A stretch of DNA of 64,000 nucleotides from Staphylococcus phage vB_SurM-PSU4. This document shows, piece by piece, positions 3,638 to 64,000 of this stretch (the stretch's first letter is position 1; every line of letters begins with the position of its first letter). Under the pieces are notes generated by a model, which saw only the letters and a list, made by a program, of their open reading frames with translations, had not been told where the DNA came from and did not search any database. Location: the sequence record OL436245.1. One strand, written 5' to 3'. Position numbers and translations under genes: made by a program.

Positions 3638-4180
3638 ATGAAAACAATCACAAAACAATTTAACGTATATTCTTTAGAGGAACTAAAAGCAGTAGACACA
3701 GAAGCATATGAGGAAGCTATGAACAACGTAAGAGAAGACTACACAGAAACTCAAATAGATTTCTTTTATCAAGATATGGAGGAAACTATGCAAGAATTTG
3801 CAAAGGTTTTTAATATCTCTCTTACAGATTATTCTTTCGGAGTTTATCATAATAGTTATGTAAATGTTGATATTGACGATTATATGGACTTAGATAACGG
3901 AGACAAAAAAGACCTAGTGAAAAAAGCTAATAACCTCAAAAATGAGGATTGTCCGTTCACTGGAATTCATACAGATTTATATATCACAGACTACTTCAAA
4001 GAAAATGAAGTCACATACAATGACTTACACAAGCATTTAGATGATGTTCTACATGTTGCAGTAAGAAACTTCATGAACGACCTGGAGGACGACCTGGAGG
4101 ACGATAACAACATTTTAGATTATGCACTAAATGAAGATATGGAATTTTTAGAAGACGGTAGCATTTACAGAGCTATTTAA
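3638..4180 (+). CDS. acidic hypothetical early protein (start refined to MKTITKQ...)
   Basis: RBS aaaggaattg before ATG 3638; highly acidic C-terminus with repeated DDLEDDLEDD. Confidence 0.55.
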   Translation: MKTITKQFNVYSLEELKAVDTEAYEEAMNNVREDYTETQIDFFYQDMEETMQEFAKVFNISLTDYSFGVYHNSYVNVDIDDYMDLDNGDKKDLVKKANNLKNEDCPFTGIHTDLYITDYFKENEVTYNDLHKHLDDVLHVAVRNFMNDLEDDLEDDNNILDYALNEDMEFLEDGSIYRAI

Positions 4181-4258
4181 TCATTGTTAGGCTACCTATT
4201 AAGGTAGGTAGCTTATAGAGTGATTAAATCACTACTAAATTATTAGGAGATGTTTATA

Positions 4259-4729
4259 ATGAATACAATAAAAGAATTTTTACAAAATGAAGAAGAAAGC
4301 ACAGTGAAAGACGTAGCAACTTACGGAGTACAAAGCGGAGCAATCGGGGAACTTATTTATACTTCAGACGTGGTAGATTTCTTTAACAGATATGAACAGG
4401 ACATTACAGACGTTATCACTGACTACTTAGAAGGTGTCACAGGTGCTCAATATTATGACTTGTTAAACTACGAGCTTATGAGTGACCTAGAGAACTATGC
4501 AAATGTAGAGTTTCAACATGAAGATACTTACCACGAAATAGAGTTTGACCTAGCAGAAAATATTGCTTCTAATGAAATTGAAGGCTTTGACGATATGGAC
4601 GAAGAGGAACAGGTGGAAGCGGTTTTCGAATCTATGGAGTTTATAGAATTAGAAATTCAAGACACTGACAAGGTGCAATTTGTTAACTTAGCAGTTGAGA
4701 TAGTAGCACAACAAATGCAGGAAGCATAA
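4259..4729 (+). CDS. acidic hypothetical protein, paralog of 4814..5290
   Basis: RBS aggag 9 nt before ATG 4259; N-terminus MNTIKEFL and C-terminus FVNLAVEIVAQQMQEA shared with the next gene. Confidence 0.6.
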   Translation: MNTIKEFLQNEEESTVKDVATYGVQSGAIGELIYTSDVVDFFNRYEQDITDVITDYLEGVTGAQYYDLLNYELMSDLENYANVEFQHEDTYHEIEFDLAENIASNEIEGFDDMDEEEQVEAVFESMEFIELEIQDTDKVQFVNLAVEIVAQQMQEA

Positions 4730-4813
4730 GACCCTGCAGGAATCACACAGAGGCACACAGAGAAGCTTAGCCGCTTCTCTAATACAAATAAAAATTATTA
4801 GGAGATGTTAAAT

Positions 4814-5290
4814 ATGAATACAATCAGAGAATTTTTAGAAACTAGAGAAGCACAAGGAACTTTACACATTGGAGACTTAGCAGAATACGGAGTTATGAAC
4901 GTAGGACACAACGAACTTATGTACAATGAAGATATACTTAATTTCTTTAAACAATATGAAGACGATATTGAAGCGGTTATACTTGAATACGTGGAGGACT
5001 TAACACATGATACTTTTTACGATATTATAAATGTTGAGCTTATGGAGTTATTAAATAGTGAGATTAACACAAGCTTTACGGAGTATGAAGATATGCTAGA
5101 CCTCATGCAAGACGAAGCAACACAACTCGCAGAGACTCATGAAGATTGGTACGATATAGACGAGGAGGAACAAGAGGAGCTTATATTTGACTGTATGAAC
5201 GATGTAGAGGTATTACCTACAGACCAAGACAAGATTAACTTTGTATGCTTAGCAGTTGAACTGGTAGCACAAGATATGACGGAGGGATAA
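4814..5290 (+). CDS. acidic hypothetical protein, paralog of 4259..4729
   Basis: RBS aggag before ATG 4814; MNTIREFL ... FVCLAVELVAQDMTEG. Confidence 0.6.
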   Translation: MNTIREFLETREAQGTLHIGDLAEYGVMNVGHNELMYNEDILNFFKQYEDDIEAVILEYVEDLTHDTFYDIINVELMELLNSEINTSFTEYEDMLDLMQDEATQLAETHEDWYDIDEEEQEELIFDCMNDVEVLPTDQDKINFVCLAVELVAQDMTEG

Positions 5291-27950: not shown

Positions 27951-28409
27951 CTAGTTGATTGAACTTGTTGCTAGGTCATCTGCCCTTTCATTCCATTTAT
28001 CCCCTAATTCTTTTGAGTGTGCTTTCACCTTTTTAAAGTTTATATCAATATATTGTTCTAGATGCCTCATTGTACTTATATAAGCTTGACTTAATTCATT
28101 CTTAGCTCTCCAAGCACCACTACGCCATTTAATCAAACCAATATAATCTACATAAACTTCTACAGACTTATAACCTAGTTCTATACACTTCTCAACACCA
28201 TAAAGACAAGCAAATATTTCACCTGCAACATTATTATACTTAACAAATTGTGGGTACTTTCCTTTAATACTTGCACTGTAGATTTCTGAGTCGTTTTCTA
28301 CAATTACATATCCAGAGCCATAGAGACCTCTCTTGTATGAACTTGCACCATCTGTATATAGTTTAAGCATATAAGAAGTCCTCTCTATTAATAATATAAG
28401 GAAATTCAC
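27951..28409 (-). CDS. ribonuclease H (RNase HI-like)
   Basis: LYTDGAS ... GYV ... E ... D ... HSKELGDKWNERADDLA pattern of the RNase H fold. Confidence 0.65.
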   Translation of the reverse strand: MNFLILLIERTSYMLKLYTDGASSYKRGLYGSGYVIVENDSEIYSASIKGKYPQFVKYNNVAGEIFACLYGVEKCIELGYKSVEVYVDYIGLIKWRSGAWRAKNELSQAYISTMRHLEQYIDINFKKVKAHSKELGDKWNERADDLATSSIN

Positions 28410-28557
28410 TATCGTTATTTTGGTAATTTAAAAAATACACTTTAATATCTTTATAATCAAAGAAAGCAAAACAATGTTTCTTAACTTCATCTTCATTCTT
28501 AGCAACCGCAAACATTTCTCGACCATCAACAATTACTCTATATAAACATTTTAACAT
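28363..28557 (-). CDS. hypothetical protein (overlaps the RNase H start by 47 nt)
   Basis: ORF. Confidence 0.35.
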   Translation of the reverse strand: MLKCLYRVIVDGREMFAVAKNEDEVKKHCFAFFDYKDIKVYFLNYQNNDSEFPYIINREDFLYA

Positions 28558-28569
28558 ATGGTAATCCTC

Positions 28570-37691: not shown

Positions 37692-38005
37692 AGCCCCACG
37701 ATTTAACATAGGGGTACTCCAACGTCTTATAACCTTGAAAGGTGAACTTGACATTGATTCCATTGCTGATGATTCTGATGATGAAGGTACTCTATCATAT
37801 TCATCCAGTGACAAATAATCAATATCCACACCTTCTAAAGCTTTAGGTGTAGAACTTGTTCTAAAGAACATACTTGAATTTCTTATTTGTTTATATTTTA
37901 ATGAGTCATTATCTTGGTTAATGATGCTTGCAAAATAAGGTTGTTGCAATGTAGGGTTTATCCTACTTTGTACGAATTTCTGCATTTGGTCACTGGTCAT
38001 TTTTA
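37692..38005 (-). CDS. terL: terminase large subunit, internal exon (Walker B-like DIDYLSLDEYD)
   Basis: ORF bracketed by intron cores; hydrophobic run then DE, typical of a terminase ATPase Walker B. Confidence 0.45.
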
Positions 38006-39408
38006 CCCCTAGTTTCCTAGTATTTAAAGGGATTAGACTATATCATAAGAATACATTTATATATTTAAATACGGACTGTATTCTTCTCTGCTTTACTTCC
38101 TAATAAGTATTTATCTTTTAAGTCTTCTAAGTAATTTATAAGTTTTATTCCTGCTATTGTGTAAGGTATTCTAATCATCTCAATGTTATTATCTTTAGCG
38201 TACTTATTTTTTATATCATCTCTTATTTGTTGCTTTTTGAAGGCTTCTAAACCTCCAAAATATTCTATAGGTTCATAATGTTGTTTCCCATCATATTCAA
38301 TAAAAAGCCCATTCTCACCATAATCAGGTATATAAAAATCAAACTTTAAAATGTTAATATATCTACAATCCTCAAATGATTTTTGAAACTCATATATTAT
38401 ACCTTCATCTTTTAAAAATCCCGCTATTATATCTTCGCCATTAGAAATACTACTACATTGAGGGCATCCTGTTAACCTTAAAACATGATTAGGTTCAGCT
38501 TTAAAAACACATTTACACTCATTACATTGGAAAGATGTTTTAGTATGAGTATTTACATAATCACCTATCAAACTTATTTTACCTTTGTGAAAATACTCTA
38601 ATTGTTCTTGAACAACATCTATCTTCTTACGTTGAGATTCTTTAACATTTTCTATGATACATTGAGGACATACATTCTTCCTTCTTTTACTTATCATATT
38701 TATAGGTGTATTATAAAAATAAAAATCATGTACATTACATTTTAATTTTATACTTTCCGAATATCCTGTATATTCACCAATAACAGAAATATTATTATTG
38801 TACTTTTTATTTATCTCATCTTTAAACGTATCTGTTGTTTTAATTCTTTTTTGATTATCACAATAATAACATCTACTATTTCCTGTTAGGAAATTATTTG
38901 GTTTTACAGACCATTCATTACCACAAATGTTATGTTTCATAAGTATTTTATCTCTAGTTCTTGTATACTTACCAATAACTGTGTATTCATTACCTACTAA
39001 ATCATATATTTCTCGTTCAAATTCTTCTTGTGTTTTCTTTTTAGACATTCTTATCCCCCTTTCTTATCTTTTTATACTTATTAGGTTTTCTTATACTATT
39101 TTCGTTATCTCCATTCAGATAACTATTAGTAAGTTTAGTCGTTAGACATTTATCCTAACATTACTATATCATATATAAATATAGTTGTCAAGAATTTAGT
39201 ACGGTAGGTTCCCACTATCTGTGTATAGTCAGAGTTAGGGTTTCTTACCAGTATATTGTTTATCTATACATTATTTTACTATGCCCGTTTAACAGAGTTT
39301 TAGTTCCCCACTCTGTTATTTCATAGGGAACGTGAACATACACTTGACAGAATCTTTACTATGTGTATCTGCAAAATGCAACATCTTATTGTATCCAACT
39401 TCACTTAA
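38006..39408 (-). ncRNA. group I intron in terL carrying an endonuclease ORF; boundaries approximate
   Basis: R-like taaatgtctaacgactaaac (plus 39133-39152), S-like atgatatagtctaatccc (plus 38031-38046); the 3' end cccctagtttcctagtatttaaaggg is shared with the intron at 39479..39734. Confidence 0.5.
38065..39048 (-). CDS. intron-encoded endonuclease, paralog of 36562..37455 (CxxC repeats plus Vsr/DUF559-like domain)
   Basis: C-terminus FDFYIPDYGENGLFIEYDGKQHYEPIEYFGG ... NIEMIRIPY; N-terminal modules ending RCYYC, CPQC, CPQC. Confidence 0.6.
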   Translation of the reverse strand: MSKKKTQEEFEREIYDLVGNEYTVIGKYTRTRDKILMKHNICGNEWSVKPNNFLTGNSRCYYCDNQKRIKTTDTFKDEINKKYNNNISVIGEYTGYSESIKLKCNVHDFYFYNTPINMISKRRKNVCPQCIIENVKESQRKKIDVVQEQLEYFHKGKISLIGDYVNTHTKTSFQCNECKCVFKAEPNHVLRLTGCPQCSSISNGEDIIAGFLKDEGIIYEFQKSFEDCRYINILKFDFYIPDYGENGLFIEYDGKQHYEPIEYFGGLEAFKKQQIRDDIKNKYAKDNNIEMIRIPYTIAGIKLINYLEDLKDKYLLGSKAEKNTVRI

Positions 39409-42355: not shown

Positions 42356-43396
42356 TATGTTAAGTAAGTAAGTAAGGGTAATTAAGTTTACCCTTATTTT
42401 TTTATATATTTTTACTTGCTAGAGAGAAAAAAGTATGATATAGTGTGAATATATAGAAAAATATAGTTAATTTGATTTTACAAATTAGTAAAAGTATGAT
42501 ATACTATATTTAGTTAGAAATACATAACAATTAAATAAAGAGCTGATGAGTACACATAATGGTGAGATGTGTAGGAATAGCGACATTGAGGAAGTTAAAT
42601 CGGAGCTTCGAGCATCACCATGAAAATTCGATGGGTATATATGTAAATAAATAGTACAATGGTGCATATATTTCCAGATTTGGTGATGACTACCAATGTA
42701 CTAAAAAGGTCAGGGAGGTTTCTTGTTGTGCTTTGCACAGGGGAGCCTTGTTCCCATATACAGACTTCACGAGGGGCGGTAGCTATCCCCTCTTTAAACA
42801 TTATAACTAAAGGCTAAACGAAGTAGTATAGGTTGTTAGGACAAGAATTAACGTAAAACAAGGTTAGCACTAGACCGTAATCTATACATATTTTATACAC
42901 TATGATTATATCTTTCTAGTTACAATTCTGTTGTACCTAGGGGATAAGTCTACCCGTAATGCTACGCAAACCTAAACCAATAAAACACAAAACAAATAAC
43001 CTAAATAATTAATAACTTATTATTTACTGTAGACTTATCTAATAACTAAATAAATTAAATAATAAATATATAGACTTAAAAAAGAGAATAAGATATATAA
43101 CAAATTAGAGAGTATATAGAAAGTAACTAAATAATATATACAGTAAAATAAATAAATATACATAATATATAATTAAACTTAAAAGTATATAAATATATTA
43201 ATTTAAGTAAGTGATTGTAGTGAAGAATTAGAGCGAATCTTTATAACTTAATTATATACATATACATACATAAATATTTAGATATACTGGATAAATTAAT
43301 TTAGTATATATTTTTTTATATAAGTGTTGACATATTACGATTTATAAGATATAGTTAAACTATACTAATTATTCAAGATATTAATTAAAAAAGTTA

Positions 43397-43425
43397 TTGA
43401 CAAACACTAATCAATATATTATAAT
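43397..43425 (+). promoter_or_regulatory. consensus sigma-A promoter
   Basis: TTGACA 43397-43402, 17-nt spacer, TATAAT 43420-43425. Confidence 0.65.
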
Positions 43426-43464
43426 TAGATATATAAAATAAATTAAAGAAAAGGAAATGATAAT

Positions 43465-43674
43465 ATGAAAAAACAAGTAATGGTTTATAGTAAATTAGAA
43501 TGTCAAGAATGCGGAACTGATTTAAGTATTCCTAGAAAAAGAGCTAAGAAAAGAAGTGAAGGACACATTAAACATATGTATTGTCCTACATGCCAATCAA
43601 CAACAGGATTTGTAGAAACAAATAAAGATAAGTCATATGATTTTTGGGAACAATGGCAAGCACAATTTAACTAA
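43465..43674 (+). CDS. small zinc-ribbon protein
   Basis: CQECG ... CPTC pairs; RBS aaaggaaatg. Confidence 0.5.
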   Translation: MKKQVMVYSKLECQECGTDLSIPRKRAKKRSEGHIKHMYCPTCQSTTGFVETNKDKSYDFWEQWQAQFN

Positions 43675-43688
43675 GGAGATGATAAAAG

Positions 43689-43991
43689 ATGAGTAACTAT
43701 ACAAGACATGGACAGAAAAGAATACGTAAAAGACAAGGTGTTAAAAAAAGTAATTTAGAAGATGAAATAGATAAAGTGTTAGATGAAGGGTTAAGTCATG
43801 GAGACTGTAAAGGAAAACTTAAGAAATACTTAGACAGATTATGGTTTAGTCATAAGAGTGGTTACTTCAGAGTATATAAATCTAACATTTATATATTTGA
43901 CTTTAATACAGATAGGTTAATTACAATGTATGCTCTTCCTGGACACTTAAATAAGATATATCAACAATGTTTAAAAAAGAAGTCAATTTGA
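43689..43991 (+). CDS. hypothetical basic protein
   Basis: ORF. Confidence 0.45.
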   Translation: MSNYTRHGQKRIRKRQGVKKSNLEDEIDKVLDEGLSHGDCKGKLKKYLDRLWFSHKSGYFRVYKSNIYIFDFNTDRLITMYALPGHLNKIYQQCLKKKSI

Positions 43992-45424
43992 TTTTGTAGA
44001 AATGGACTTATGTGTTATAATGTACTTAAGTAGTTGATATACACTACTTAAACCACATACCCACCCTAAGTTCAGAGGGATTAAGTTCTCTCTGTTCATA
44101 CATAAATATTAGTGTATTGAAAGCACTTGTTATAATGACTGAATAATGGTTTGGTATCCATAAGGTATAAGATAATCAAACGAACTAAAACTTATCGGAG
44201 ACATAATGCTCCACTAGTAGGTAACTTACTGGAAGGAGCTACAATTGTAATCGGTAGGATGAGTCGTCATTAGTATTGTTTAATACGATTGGTATACTTG
44301 GTACTTGATTATAAGGACTGTAGAGTATGATAACAGCTAGAGTTTAACTTCTTCTTAGGGTCTTAGCGGAATCCTATGAAGATACGCTATAACGACTTCT
44401 TGTAGTTGGAGCACAGAAATGTGTTTGATAATAGAGGTTATCAGTACAAGTAGCATAAATCTACATTTCAAAAGATATATTTGGTAAATATAAAAGTGAA
44501 ACCAAATAAATTATTTCTTCAACCATGTGAACGTTACTAACTATTATGTTAGTATCACATTATCCTTTTGGATTGCGTGAGATGGACTTAAGGTAGCTCC
44601 TTAATAGAGTCAATCGTAGTGATTCACTTAATAACAGGTCTTATAATCAGGTTCTCGGTGAGACGAGTTATAACAAGTGCTTTGATTACATTAGTAATCT
44701 AATAACAATAATTCCTTCGTTTTATTCCTTACATTTTTTATTGTTATATTAAGTCTTAGGTATATGAAAAGATATTGTAGTTATCAAAATTTAAATCATA
44801 TAAATCCTCCTTTCCCTTTGTTTTTTTGTATAGATTCATTCTACAGACAAATCGAAGTAATATACCTATAAACCCACTTTAAATAATTAGTATGGATGAA
44901 TAGTGGGCTCCATACTATACATAAACATTTTAACATATGACTGTTTTTTTAGACCTTACCCTGTTTTCCAGTATAAAACAATAACTAATGGTAAGGGTAT
45001 ATTTGAAATTTAGACTTTTCATTAAGTCTTTCCGTTCGTGAAAAATGATTGAGGGTTTTGAGAGTTCCCCTTGGCTAACAATAACTCTCTTTATATCCCT
45101 TAATTGTGTAAAACATGAGAGATACCATGTCATTAGGGAGTTTCGGCTGGTAACTTCTTCCAGTCCAGTATCTAAATAGCTTATGGTGAGCGTATACGTC
45201 AGAAAAGACGTTAAAAACTTAGGATGACATTGACTGAGTAGGAATAATATGTTACTCGATTTCCCCACACGAGTATAAATAAGCATTGGGGAGCATACAT
45301 AATAGTAATTGATATTGCCCCTGTTTCAATCTTTATCAATTCTTTTTTACATATATTAAAAGGATAAAATTATATGAATGTATAGGAAATTACATATAAC
45401 TTATCTGATGAGAGGGGATTTAAT

Positions 45425-45914: not shown

Positions 45915-46436
45915 GTGTCAAAAGATACTAACCAGAAAAAACCTAAAGTATTTTTAGGTCAAAACTTATCTACACGTGTACGTAGTCCTTATTTTTGGAC
46001 AGGTGTTGTAGGTATTTTAGGTAGTGCAGTTGTATCATTCGGTGGATTAATAGGTGTAGACTTATCAGCTCAAGTAGATAATGTCACAGCTAACTCAAGT
46101 AAAATTATTGAGTTTATTTTCTTAATCCTTGGATTGTTAGGTGTTTCAGTAGACCCTAATAGTAAAGGTAGAAAAGATAGTGAGATTGTGAGAACTAGTT
46201 ACAAAAAACCTAGAAATGATAAAGACCCTAACGAATTTGTTCAATGGCAAGAAAATGCAAAACAAACAAGTGCTTTTGAGATAGACGAATACGAAAACAA
46301 TGCAGAGCCTGATACAGATGATAGTGATGAAGTACTTGCTATCGAAGATGAGATTGATGGGGGCTCAGCACCTTCTCAAGAGGAAGAAGATACTGAGGAA
46401 CATGGTAAAGTATTTGCAGAGGATGAAGTTAAGTAA
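45915..46436 (+). CDS. holin
   Basis: two hydrophobic helices ([21 protein letters not shown] and [16 protein letters not shown]) plus an acidic C-terminal tail; its stop overlaps the endolysin ATG. Confidence 0.65.
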
Positions 46437-47923
46437 TGACTAAGACTCAAGCAGAAATAAATAAACGTTTAGATGCTTACGCAAAAGGAACAGTAGATAG
46501 CCCTTATAGAGTTAAGAAAGCAACAAGTTATGACCCTAGTTTTGGTGTTATGGAAGCAGGAGCTATTGATGTAGATAAATATTACCACGCTCAATGTCAA
46601 GACCTTATTACAGACTATGTATTATGGCTAACAGATAATAAAGTTAGAACTTGGGGTAATGCTAAAGACCAAATCAAACAAAGTTACGGTACTGGATTTA
46701 AAATACACCAAAATAAACCTTCTACAGTACCTAAAAAAGGTTGGATTGCAGTATTTACAGGTGGTAGTTATTCACAGTGGGGTCATATAGGTATTGTATA
46801 TGATGGAGGTAATACTTCAACATTTACTATTTTAGAGCAAAACTGGAACGGTTACGCTAATAAAAAACCTACAAAACGTGTAGATAATTATTACGGATTA
46901 ACTCATTTCATCGAAATACCTTTAAAAGCAGGAACTACTGTTAAAAAAGAAACAGCTAAGAAAAGTGCAAGTAAAACACCCGAACCTAAAAAGAAAGCAA
47001 CATTAAAAGTTTCTAAGAATCATATTAACTATACAATGGCTAAACGTGGTAAAAAACCTGAAGGCATGGTAATACACAACGATGCGGGTCGTTCTTCAGG
47101 ACAACAATATGAGAATTCATTAGCTAAAGCAGGTTATGCTAGGTATGCTAATGGTATTGCTCATTACTACGGTTCTGAAGGTTATATATGGGAAGCAATA
47201 GATGCTAAGAATCAAATTGCTTGGCACACAGGTGATGGAACAGGAGCAAACTCAGGTAACTTTAGATTTGCAGGTATTGAAGTCTGTCAATCAATGAGTG
47301 CTAGTGATGCTCAATTCCTTAAAAATGAACAAGCAGTATTCCAATTTACAGCAGAAAAATTTAAAGAGTGGGGTATTACGCCTAACCGTAAAAGTGTAAG
47401 ATTACACATGGAATTCGTTCCTACTGCGTGCCCTCACCGTTCAATGGTTCTTCATACAGGATTTAATCCAGTAACTCAAGGAAGACCATCACAAGCAATA
47501 ATGAATAAACTAAAAGATTATTTCATTAAACAAATTAAAAACTACATGGATAAAGGCACTTCAAGTTCTACTGTAGTTAAAAAAGGTAAAACAAGTAGTG
47601 CAAGTACACCAGCAACTAGACCAGTTGTAGGTTCTTGGAAAAAGAACCAGTACGGAACTTGGTATAAACCAGAAAATGCAACATTTGTTAATGGTAACCA
47701 ACCTATAGTAACTAGAATAGGTTCTCCATTCTTAAATGCTCCAGTAGGAGGTAACTTACCAGCAGGGGCTACAATTGTATATGACGAAGTTTGTATCCAA
47801 GCAGGTCATATTTGGATAGGTTATAATGCTTATAACGGTAACAGAGTATATTGCCCTGTTAGAACATGTCAAGGTGTTCCACCAAACCATATACCAGGAG
47901 TTGCCTGGGGTGTATTTAAATAG
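46436..47923 (+). CDS. lysK: endolysin LysK-type (CHAP peptidase + amidase_2 + SH3b), uninterrupted
   Basis: 495 aa, matching LysK as I remember it ([57 protein letters not shown]...) apart from its first residue and a few substitutions; CHAP Cys/His, amidase and C-terminal SH3b motifs all present; no intron. Confidence 0.9.
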
Positions 47924-61976: not shown

Positions 61977-61977
61977 A

Positions 61978-62019
61978 GGTGGTGGTTAAAATCCACTACC
62001 TTATTTTTTTAGAGAAGTG
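61978..62019 (+). terminator. hairpin with T-run (attenuator or terminator) before the tape measure gene
   Basis: ggtggtgg ttaaaat ccactacc then ttattttttt. Confidence 0.4.
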
Positions 62020-62040
62020 GTGGTAAACAAATGGCAATGA

Positions 62041-64000
62041 ATGAAACTTATAATTTAACCATAAATGGTGATGGTTCCAAGTTAAATAAGGAACTGGAGA
62101 CAATACTTACAAATTTAAAATCTATTGAAAATCAAAATATGTCTAAGCCTTTAAAAGACTATGAACAAAAGATTAGAAAAGCTGTAGATTTAAACAAACA
62201 ATTACAAAAGATAATGAGTAAAAACGAAGGTAATACAATTGTATCTTCTAAAGATATGAATAGTTCATTAAAGATAACACAAGAAATGACTAAACATATG
62301 AAAGACTTACAAGGTGTATTACAAGATGTTCAGAAGACTGGATTATCTAAAGGTATTAAAGCTGACTATGATATGTTGCATCAAACATTAAATGGTTTGA
62401 ATGGAACAATGAGTCAGACAATAAAACAACAAAAAGAGTTTAATAGTTTAAAAACAACAAGAGACCCTAACGTTCAAGCGATGATTAAAGATTGGGAACG
62501 TTTAGGTAAAATGCCTAAAGAATATAAACAGTCTATGAAAGAGATAGACAAAACAAAAGAAGCTAACAAGACTTTAAATAAACAAAGAAACAGAATTACA
62601 TCTGCAAATGAAAGAGAACGTAGAGATGGTAAATACTCTGCTAGAGATGGTGCAGAAGTAGCTAAAGCTTTAAACCAAGATTATGACCAATATAGAAATG
62701 AGCTTAAGAAAGCTAAAGCCTCTTTAAAAGAGTTAAGAAAAAAACAAGAAGATATTGCTAAAAATCAAGAGAAGACAAATACAGACTACTCAAGTAATAA
62801 AATTGGAAAAGAAGAACATAGAGAGCAAACAGCTTATAATTCTACCTTATCAAGTCAATACGATAAAGAAATTAAAGAGAGAGAAAAATATGTCTCTAAC
62901 TTAAAAAGTATGACTAACGACTTAGGTAAAACTGGAGCAACAAGACAACAATTTGAACAAGGAAGAGTAGCTAGAAGTCGAGATACGTTACTAGGTACTG
63001 CTTTAGAACGTGCACCATCCATCGCATCTCATGCTACTATGGGAGTAGGTGGAGCACTAGGTTTACAATACGCTCAAGGTAAAAGCTCTCTAGAAGGTAT
63101 TAGAGGGGAAGAAATAGCACTAGGACAACAAACAGGTGCAAGTGATTATTCTTCTCTAAGAAAAAACTTATTCCAAGCATCCGATGATAGAGGGTTAGGA
63201 TTTAAACCTTCTGAACTTGTTAAAATGTCTTCGCAAGCTATGCAAGCAATTGGAGATAAAGGATTACCAAACCAAGAAGAAATCACAACAGAACTAGCTA
63301 CAGGAGCTAGAGGTATGGGTGTAGCTGATACAGAATCTTACTTAAAATCTATGACAGATATTATGCACAGTGGTGGAATTGGTGATGATGTAGATTTAAA
63401 ACAATTCCAAAAAACAGTATCTGGCGGTATTAAAGAATCAGGTATGAAAGCCCAAGCAGATGAACAACTAAAAGCTTTATCTTCTATGTCTAATACAATG
63501 GGAGCTCAACGTGAACTTTCAACTGCTGATTTAAATTCTATTGCTAGTTTACAGGGTACTTTTGCAGAATCAGGTAATAAAGCATTACAAGGTGAAAAAG
63601 GTGCAAATGCTTTAAACCAAATCCAACAAGGTATTGCGGGAGCATACCAAGACCCTTCAATGAGAAATATAATGGGGTTCGGTTCTGAATACACAGGTGT
63701 TACAGGAGCATGGCAACAAAGAAAAGATTTAGGAGACCCTAGTAAACTAGGGGAGAACTTAAGTCAATTCATGGGATTCTATGGTACAGCAACACCTGAA
63801 CAAGAAGCTGCTACTGGTATGGGTCTCATGGATAATTTTGGACTTAGTGGACAACAAGCTGAAGAAATCATGAAGTTGTATGACAAAGGTGAATTATCTG
63901 AGGAAGAATTAGGTAAGAAAGTAAAAGAATACCAAGACTCTAGTGAGATAGACAAAAACAACAAAGACCAATCAGAACAACAACAAGGTAAAGATAACAC
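62041..64000 (+). CDS. tail tape measure protein, 5' part (runs off the window)
   Basis: open frame from ATG 62041 (RBS gtggtgg) to the window end, more than 650 codons with no stop; Lys/Glu/Gln-rich coiled-coil-like sequence; follows the chaperone-like pair. Confidence 0.55.

Follow-up and report, generated by a model that had tools for sequence, protein, structure and literature searches.

A probable divergent ROOL-class RNA with a lysK-derived insert in a Baoshanvirus-like staphylococcal phage

Introduction

The ROOL RNAs are among the largest and most ornate non-coding RNAs (ncRNAs) of bacteria and phages. They are found in phages and prophages, near transfer RNAs (tRNAs), and have three pseudoknots (PMC5737381). 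As seen by cryo-electron microscopy (cryo-EM), the ROOL RNA env-120, which is the only ROOL imaged, forms a homo-octameric hollow cage that consists of RNA only, is larger than the ribosome, holds a disordered linker inside, and has the P10 and P13 pseudoknots; its loop L3a contacts J6/7 intramolecularly (PMC12286853). In Rfam, the class is described by RF03087, a model of 574 positions with a curated gathering score of 99.1 bits. Here, we analyze a 64,000-nucleotide (nt) stretch of the genome of Staphylococcus phage vB_SurM-PSU4 (OL436245.1; from here on, the window) and, in its gene-poor part at 43990-45420, an element at 44107-44696 on the plus strand that is very probably a divergent ROOL-class structured ncRNA of a Baoshanvirus-like staphylococcal Twortvirinae phage. 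An earlier note, made from the sequence of the window, had proposed that the gene-poor part is either a graveyard of gene remnants, including the 3′ end of a second copy of the endolysin gene lysK, or a long non-coding transcript.

Kayvirus phages carry a long non-coding RNA (lncRNA) of the same sequence family at the same locus and on the same strand, with an early sigma-70-type promoter upstream. The two reports on this RNA describe a transcript and not its structure or family, and their authors drew a resemblance to ROOL and GOLLD from position and abundance only (PMC7698491, PMC9241854); a later review asserts sequence similarity with no analysis shown (PMC10383478). The Kayvirus locus differs from that in the window in that the promoter abuts helix P1 of the RNA and genes for tRNA-Asp/Phe/Trp follow it, whereas in the window, the promoter-like site is located ~90 nt upstream of P1 and there are no tRNA genes. 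GOLLD (RF01998) resembles the element as a large, ornate, phage- and tRNA-associated RNA that forms a homo-oligomeric cage, but it is >800 nt long and of another architecture, and Rfam gave no GOLLD match on the element at E-values of up to 10. A full-text literature search for ROOL together with Staphylococcus found no demonstration of a ROOL in staphylococcal phages.

Compared to ROOL RNAs, the element and its relatives have a similar length (~580 nt), ends that are shut by a long P1, the same order of helices and motifs, and a variable A/U-rich linker at the same place in the fold; they are also phage-encoded, and in relatives, tRNA genes adjoin and the copies are very abundant. They differ in scores of 36.5 to 88.6 bits, i.e., below the gathering score, in the absence of P3b, and in the varying length and sequence of what would be L3a, which in the window bears a 45-nt lysK-derived stem extension. 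The window phage also differs in having no downstream tRNA genes, and the host group of the clade is that of the virulent Staphylococcus myoviruses.

Results

A conserved element without open reading frames

The window originates from a staphylococcal Twortvirinae phage that is Baoshanvirus-like. Its closest records are the Baoshanvirus vB_SsapH-Golestan101-M and phiSA_BS1/BS2, with ~92% identity over the gene-poor stretch (Table 1). As proposed in the earlier note, 43990-45420 contains no open reading frame (ORF) of at least 60 amino acids (aa) that is preceded by a ribosome-binding site. The sole ORF of at least 60 aa encodes 118 aa at 44930-45286 on the minus strand, in the mosaic stretch downstream of the element; it has no PHROG match and, based on inspection of the sequence, no GGAGG-like site upstream. 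We rejected a hidden protein gene, because neither this ORF nor a 40-aa ORF that spans the insert has a PHROG match.

A profile built on 21 homologues identified the element by nhmmer at 44094-44708 with an E-value of 3e-157 and as a single copy in the window; its size is ~590 nt, including the 45-nt insert. The core of the element (44132-44671) matched 244 records by megablast and 318 by blastn, of which 312 are named Staphylococcus phage, and it is without annotation in most of the blastn-matched records. By blastn, the identity to the window core is 75-91% in Kayvirus-like phages (76% in the Kayvirus phage 812), ~67% in Silviavirus, and lower in Sciuriunavirus and Twort. Synteny was fixed in all cases examined, with the gene for a Zn-finger protein followed by the element and then by tRNA genes or the holin gene. 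In a scan of IMG/VR, 12 of 17 matches were real, all of them in Twortvirinae-type contexts, while the other 5 were chance matches. Among bacterial contigs, the clade motif GTTGGAG-N4-GAAA-N4-TTNGATAA gave 18 matches, which is approximately the chance expectation by our own estimate; searched with the family profile, these 18 gave nothing beyond a 37-nt fragment with an E-value of 0.004. A group I intron was considered and rejected, as the match in the Twort record is the holTW/plyTW locus, i.e., the syntenic element, and Rfam gave no intron match. We note that several GenBank records (e.g., L003 at 3956-4821) cover the RNA region, on either strand, with short ORFs (30-43 aa) named 'hypothetical protein'; these are probably annotation artefacts.

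The expectation of the earlier note that related phages carry tRNA genes in this neighborhood was borne out in Kay- and Silvia-type phages, which have tRNA-Asp/Phe/Trp or tRNA-Ser downstream of the element. Its failure to find a tRNA in the stretch also held, as ARAGORN detects none within the 64-kb window. Moreover, tRNAs or decayed tRNAs can be set aside as an explanation of the stretch, since ARAGORN detects none in the window or in the corresponding stretches of the Baoshan-type relatives examined, and blastn of 44700-45420 against the Kayvirus tRNA region gave no match.

Table 1. Features at and around the element (positions in the window)
Feature	Coordinates	Strand	Remarks
69-aa Zn-finger protein	43465-43674	+	homologue of phage K gp191
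100-aa protein	43689-43991	+	precedes the gene-poor stretch
Promoter-like site, TTGTAG, 16-nt spacer, extended -10 TGT-TATAAT	43994-44021	+	~90 nt upstream of P1
5′ leader, Baoshan-clade-specific	44022-44106	+	hairpin by eye at ~44024-44052
ROOL-like structured RNA, whole element, P1 to P1	44107-44696	+	profile match, covariation
P1 closing helix, 5′ arm	44110-44135	+	pairs with 44668-44693
P2 loop UGGU, candidate pseudoknot arm	44152-44155	+	partner ACCA at 44522-44525
P3a-equivalent hairpin, lengthened by the insert	44191-44258	+	local fold -25.2 kcal/mol
45-nt insert from the SH3b-coding 3′ part of lysGH15-type lysK	44205-44249	+
Conserved hairpin with invariant GAAA tetraloop (44416-44419)	44410-44425	+	aligned to GAAA hairpin of ROOL model
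GUACAAGUAGC motif	44444-44454	+	GUAcaAGUAGC of ROOL consensus; near-invariant in the 21 copies
A/U-rich linker, variable	44465-44518	+	poorly alignable, length varies; aligned to long A-rich loop of model
L18-like hairpin, loop UAGCU (44594-44598)	44588-44604	+	aligned to GGUcGCUCC of model
P1 closing helix, 3′ arm	44668-44693	+
Clade-specific mosaic spacer, no tRNA	44700-45424		in the place of Kayvirus tRNA genes
Two small ORFs	between gene-poor stretch and holin	+
Holin	45915-46436	+
lysK, intron-less, 495 aa	46436-47923	+

Compensatory changes support a folded RNA

For the structure analysis, we aligned 21 diverse copies of the element, derived the consensus with RNAalifold, counted pairs, and compared the result with controls in which the partners were slid by 1-3 columns and with 500 column shuffles. 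The alignment consists of conserved blocks with length-variable hairpins between them. RNAalifold predicted 17 helices with 131 pairs, of which 87 show compensatory double changes. In the predicted structure, 98.4% of the cells form standard pairs, 87 pairs are changed on both sides, and the covariation score is 0.497; with the 3′ partners slid by 1-3 columns, the corresponding values are 36-41%, 13-22, and 0.05-0.09. On any measure, none of the 500 column shuffles reached the observed values for pairing or covariation. Several invariant G-U pairs are consistent with an RNA made from the plus strand. With 127 of the 131 consensus pairs formed, the window copy is intact.

Double changes are seen at 13 of the 23 pairs of the closing helix P1 (helix 1), in which 99.8% of the cells are paired; the sequences of the arms are almost wholly different among the Baoshan, Kay, and Silvia types, while complementarity is kept. 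Similarly, in the GAAA hairpin (helix 12), four of the six pairs show double changes and the stem occurs in several different sequences, while the loop is invariant. A long-range pairing of the P2 loop covaries, with UGGU pairing to ACCA or ACCG in 18 sequences and UGAU to AUCG in SscM1, L023, and L027. This pairing lies outside the nested structure and is suggestive of a pseudoknot; the UGAU/AUCG variant represents three sequences from two lineages, and the structure line of RF03087 carries no pseudoknot annotation with which to compare it. Most phages have UAGCU as the L18-like loop, whereas SscM1 has UUGCA and Twort has UCGCU. The loop cores AGCU and UGCA are each palindromic, i.e., self-complementary, which is suggestive, by analogy, of the symmetric loop-loop bridge (B6, loop L18) of the ROOL cage.

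The element matches the ROOL model below the gathering score

Scanning the 64-kb window against Rfam at the gathering level, or a 5-kb stretch at E-values of up to 1, gave no match. The ROOL match emerged only with queries of ~600 nt (626 nt for the window) and relaxed speed filters. Under these conditions, cmscan aligned RF03087 to window positions 44307-44648 on the plus strand with 52.7 bits (E 1e-9; model positions 171-537), to the phage 812 copy with 36.5 bits (E 9e-6; model 1-574), and to the copy on L023, a 226-kb IMG/VR contig, with 88.6 bits (E 1.7e-18; model 1-574). All homologues can be aligned end to end with the window copy. In the cmscan alignments, the elements of the model are kept in order: P1, P2, P3 with P3a/P3c, the GAAA hairpin, GUACAAGUAGC, the A/U-rich loop, UUCU...GUGAAAGUU, the GGUnGCUCC hairpin (P18-type), AAUA, a small P19-type hairpin, and then the 3′ arm of P1. 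The stretches of the model consensus, i.e., the GAAA hairpin, GUAcaAGUAGC, GUGAAAgUU, GGUcGCUCC, and AAUA, are all present in the window copy and are invariant or nearly so in the 21 copies. Because the scores are below the gathering cut-off, the clade is missed by routine Rfam annotation. As a point of method, subthreshold members of large AT-rich RNA families may be lost to speed filters in long queries.

Several points weigh against this assignment and against what we build on it. Every copy tested scores below the 99.1-bit gathering score, the window copy matches RF03087 only locally (171-537), P3b (model positions ~109-135) is deleted in both full-length cmscan alignments, and the window element lacks downstream tRNA genes, in contrast to the setting in which ROOL RNAs are usually found. 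What we say on the transcription, ends, and abundance of the window RNA derives from Kayvirus homologues, the oligomerization discussed below is extrapolated from one imaged ROOL (env-120), and the palindrome switch in the L18-like loop represents one lineage (SscM1). Finally, if the insertion site is L3a, which makes the J6/7 contact in env-120, the insert, instead of being neutral, might disturb folding.

The subthreshold scores and the missing P3b, together with high bias terms (16.5-39.9 bits) and the AT-richness of both sequences, fit an independent family of structured RNA that matches ROOL by convergence or by shared low-complexity composition. We consider this unlikely. Three diverged copies each match ROOL, the best with 88.6 bits, and match nothing else comparably; two of these align end to end, with P1, P2, P3, P3a, P3c, the GAAA hairpin, the linker, P18, and P19 in order. 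Size, phage context, the tRNA neighborhood in relatives, and abundance also agree with ROOL.

A 45-nt segment of lysK lies in a hairpin of the element

The lysK-like match reported in the earlier note is real. Window positions 44205-44249 are identical to lysK positions 47735-47779 at 39 of 45 positions (86.7%), with an E-value of 1.9e-9 when the remainder of the window was searched, and the in-frame reading NAPLVGNLLEGATIV compares with LysK as described there. The weaker similarity that was proposed to continue for ~100 nt on each side did not hold up: at the same offset, the flanks are 22-30% identical to lysK compared to a chance mean of 27%, and gapped alignments of the flanks with lysK scored within the range of shuffled sequences. 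The insert is identical at 41 of 45 positions to the lysGH15-type endolysin genes of Kayvirus and at 43 of 45 to the insert in phage Stab23; its source was a lysGH15-type allele.

The insert is located in the apical loop of a P3a-like hairpin. The host stem CUUAUCGG/UCGGUAGG bears the insert hairpin on top, while phage 812, which lacks the insert, has a plain hairpin here. The cmscan alignments point to this hairpin being P3a of the ROOL model, and by its position in the Rfam model, the insertion site would be loop L3a. The insert is absent from 19 of the 21 aligned homologues and, among 50,697 phage records, is present in this context in Stab23 alone. L018, the nearest relative of the window, is 97-99% identical over the RNA and insert-free, while Stab23 has the insert, yet has Kay-type P1 arms and a different linker. 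This distribution suggests that the insert arose once and was moved by recombination between co-infecting phages, and the variability of L3a in length and sequence within the clade may explain why an insertion is tolerated there.

Relative to lysGH15, the Stab23 insert has the changes G>U and C>U, and the window copy has the further changes G>C and C>A. In predicted folds, the first three (G>U, C>U, and G>C) each turn a mismatch into a base pair of the insert hairpin, while the fourth is located in a bulge. Read in the lysK frame, each of the four alters the amino acid. The predicted stability is -10.1 kcal/mol for the window's own lysK segment, -12.0 kcal/mol for the lysGH15 segment, -14.1 kcal/mol for the Stab23 insert, and -15.9 kcal/mol for the window insert. 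Given the pair-creating changes and the greater predicted stability, the insert evolves as an RNA stem and not as a gene remnant.

The insert could in principle be functional, i.e., a mimic of lysK mRNA that is carried on an abundant RNA, titrates a factor acting on this segment, and thereby couples the RNA to the timing of lysis. The insert has the same sense as lysK and therefore cannot pair with lysK mRNA; the shared sense, its maintenance in two lineages with different P1 arms and linkers, and the high abundance of the carrier RNA in relatives would fit a mimic. We nevertheless find this very doubtful, since only 2 of the 21 aligned sequences and 1 of the 50,697 phage records carry the insert, the nearest relative L018 lacks it, the changes lead away from lysK and toward a more stable hairpin, and no known factor binds the lysK segment. 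There is an equally slim chance that a lysK-derived stem on an abundant, possibly cage-forming RNA titrates an RNA-binding factor such as a nuclease, a small RNA, or a host defense sensor. If such a decoy stem were real, it would link a ROOL RNA to the control of lysis, and peripheral ROOL loops would be sites at which phages graft 'bait' sequences.

Even less credible is the gene graveyard, in which the stretch would be made up of protein-coding genes in decay, among them a second lysin gene of which the 3′ end (SH3b) is left. As a graveyard would predict, the 45-nt match is in frame with lysK, and the downstream 44700-45420 is a clade-specific mosaic that contains a 27-nt copy of the start of a minus-strand gene (44913-44939 versus 28534-28560). 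However, the similarity to lysK ends abruptly at 45 nt with flanks at chance level, and these flanks are ROOL sequence that is conserved in hundreds of insert-free phages. In addition, the substitutions in the insert are all non-synonymous with three of four creating RNA pairs, and the 87 compensatory pairs speak for selection on RNA structure and not on codons. Thus, for the part with the lysK match, the graveyard proposed in the earlier note gives way to a sharp insert in a conserved RNA hairpin, while a mosaic spacer with remnants is a fitting description of 44700-45424.

The window's own lysK (46436-47923) is one uninterrupted ORF of 495 aa. The records of Golestan101-M, 184DA, phage 812, and phage K show the endolysin gene either split or as a joined coding sequence; an ORF separates the pieces and is named HNH endonuclease in 184DA and 812.

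A promoter-like site and transcription of the homologous locus

The promoter described in the earlier note as TTGTAG followed, after 17 nt, by an extended -10 is present with respect to its site, while its spacer is 16 nt: TTGTAG is located at 43994-43999 and TGT-TATAAT at 44013-44021. This putative promoter is kept in the window and six relatives of the Baoshan clade, and a consensus scan omits it because the -35 hexamer matches at only three of six positions; its sequence suggests promoter activity. Kay-, Silvia-, and Twort-type relatives have a near-consensus TTGAC(A/T)-17-TATAAT-like promoter that abuts P1, with a TGT-extended -10 in most of them.

Using the family profile, we located the phage K copy at positions 37993-38607 on the minus strand of NC_005880.2 (E 2e-169). 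Because this copy lies inside the intergenic stretch between gp191 and gt004 (tRNA-Asp), the expression data for that locus apply to a homologue of the element. The gp191-gt004 stretch has the highest read count of the intergenic stretches of phage K and its own early promoter (PMC9241854). In vB_SauM-515A1, lncRNA2 is 525 nt long, precedes tRNA-Trp/Phe/Asp, and has a typical early promoter; it makes up 8.4% of the normalized counts and rises 45-fold from 5 to 30 min (PMC7698491). The long non-coding transcript, which was the second alternative in the earlier note, is therefore the one that fits, and it can be specified as a ROOL-class RNA at 44107-44696 with abundant lncRNA reads at the Kayvirus locus (PMC9241854, PMC7698491). 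The window contains no counterpart of the second Kayvirus lncRNA, lnc1 of phage K (13595-14228), which is also not similar to the ROOL-like profile.

Least probable of all is an element that acts as DNA, i.e., a replication origin or a small non-autonomous mobile element with the P1 arms as terminal inverted repeats: although a long near-perfect inverted repeat surrounds a ~550-bp segment close to an extremely AT-rich stretch that could be an origin, there is one copy in the window with fixed synteny, the arms covary rather than keep a protein-binding sequence, the G-U pairs of many internal helices would be mismatched if the opposite strand were read, the abundant transcripts of the homologous region come from one strand, and the origin proposed for phage K is a different, untranscribed gap.

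Sequences around the element

The spacer at 44700-45424 matches 16 records, essentially all from the Baoshan clade and with indels between records; scanned against Rfam with lax filters, it gave only a chance-level match (15.2 bits, E 0.79). Part of it (44913-44939, 27 nt) resembles 28534-28560, where a 64-aa gene on the minus strand (28363-28557) starts. We also observed a conserved block of ~60 nt with the hairpin UGUUUU-CCAGUAU-AAAACA (window 44913-44993; L005 2263-2428), which in the window lies downstream of the RNA. The block at 44933-44993 corresponds to a Kayvirus block that precedes the RNA and is flanked by a consensus promoter and a terminator; given these flanks in Kayvirus, the hairpin block at 44913-44993 may be a small RNA unit. 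Farther downstream, ~160 nt (45193-45353) share 89% identity with non-coding sequence that precedes the split terL of the Sextaecvirus VB-SauS-SA2 (L032 2501-2832), an unrelated 89-kb staphylococcal phage, which suggests a short exchanged or mobile segment.

Upstream of the element, 42536-42965 on the plus strand is a second ORF-free candidate for a structured RNA, with a GC content of 40-42% in a genome of ~30% GC and promoter-like sites at ~42416-42444 and ~42478-42506. In phiSA_BS1 and Golestan, it occupies the same place with 82% conservation, and ~14 PG-2021 Twortvirinae have it at another genome position with 67-70% conservation. Based on five sequences, it has 86 predicted pairs, 18 of them with compensatory changes. 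Rfam gave no match for it with lax filters at E-values of up to 10, and it is unrelated to the ROOL-like RNA and to lnc1 of phage K. A hammerhead, considered for the CUGAUGAG motif at ~42554, was rejected because Rfam had no match even at E-values of up to 10. Between the gp190-like and gp191-like genes, 43000-43460 is an extremely AT-rich gap in which the GC content is 13-17% and short repeats are scattered; the corresponding gap in phage K is untranscribed and a proposed replication origin (PMC9241854). The longest stretch of the window without an ORF of at least 70 aa on either strand is 61977-63778 (1.8 kb), for which we found no meaningful Rfam match with lax filters and no homology to lnc1 of phage K.

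Discussion

Here, we describe a new, subthreshold clade of the known ROOL class that was earlier known as an anonymous abundant Kayvirus transcript. We propose the following scenario. Host RNA polymerase would start at the extended -10 promoter, and the RNA would fold with its stable ends set by the 23-pair P1 duplex, for which RNase III is a plausible processing enzyme. The folded RNA may then assemble into a homo-oligomeric cage as in env-120, via loop-loop and A-minor contacts that could include the palindromic L18-like loop, and the cage would enclose the A/U-rich linker. The lysK piece would be a tolerated stem extension without a specific role that entered through illegitimate recombination and was passed between co-infecting phages through homologous recombination. 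As a working guess, held with low confidence and following Kretsch et al. (PMC12286853), the RNA could sequester or organize translation-related cargo during infection.

If the assignment to ROOL is correct, it places this class in a virulent, genetically tractable phage-host pair with time-resolved transcriptomes. The window phage and Stab23 then represent a natural experiment in which a 45-nt foreign stem is tolerated in L3a, which would mark a permissive site on the fold. Standard Rfam annotation overlooks the whole clade, as the scores are below the cut-off and speed filters drop the match in long queries; for annotators, this means that these 'ORF-free gaps' should be marked as an ncRNA gene and not as small hypothetical ORFs. 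Altogether, our analysis indicates that the most abundant non-coding transcript of the Kayvirus-type therapeutic phages, and its counterpart in the window, belong to the ROOL class.

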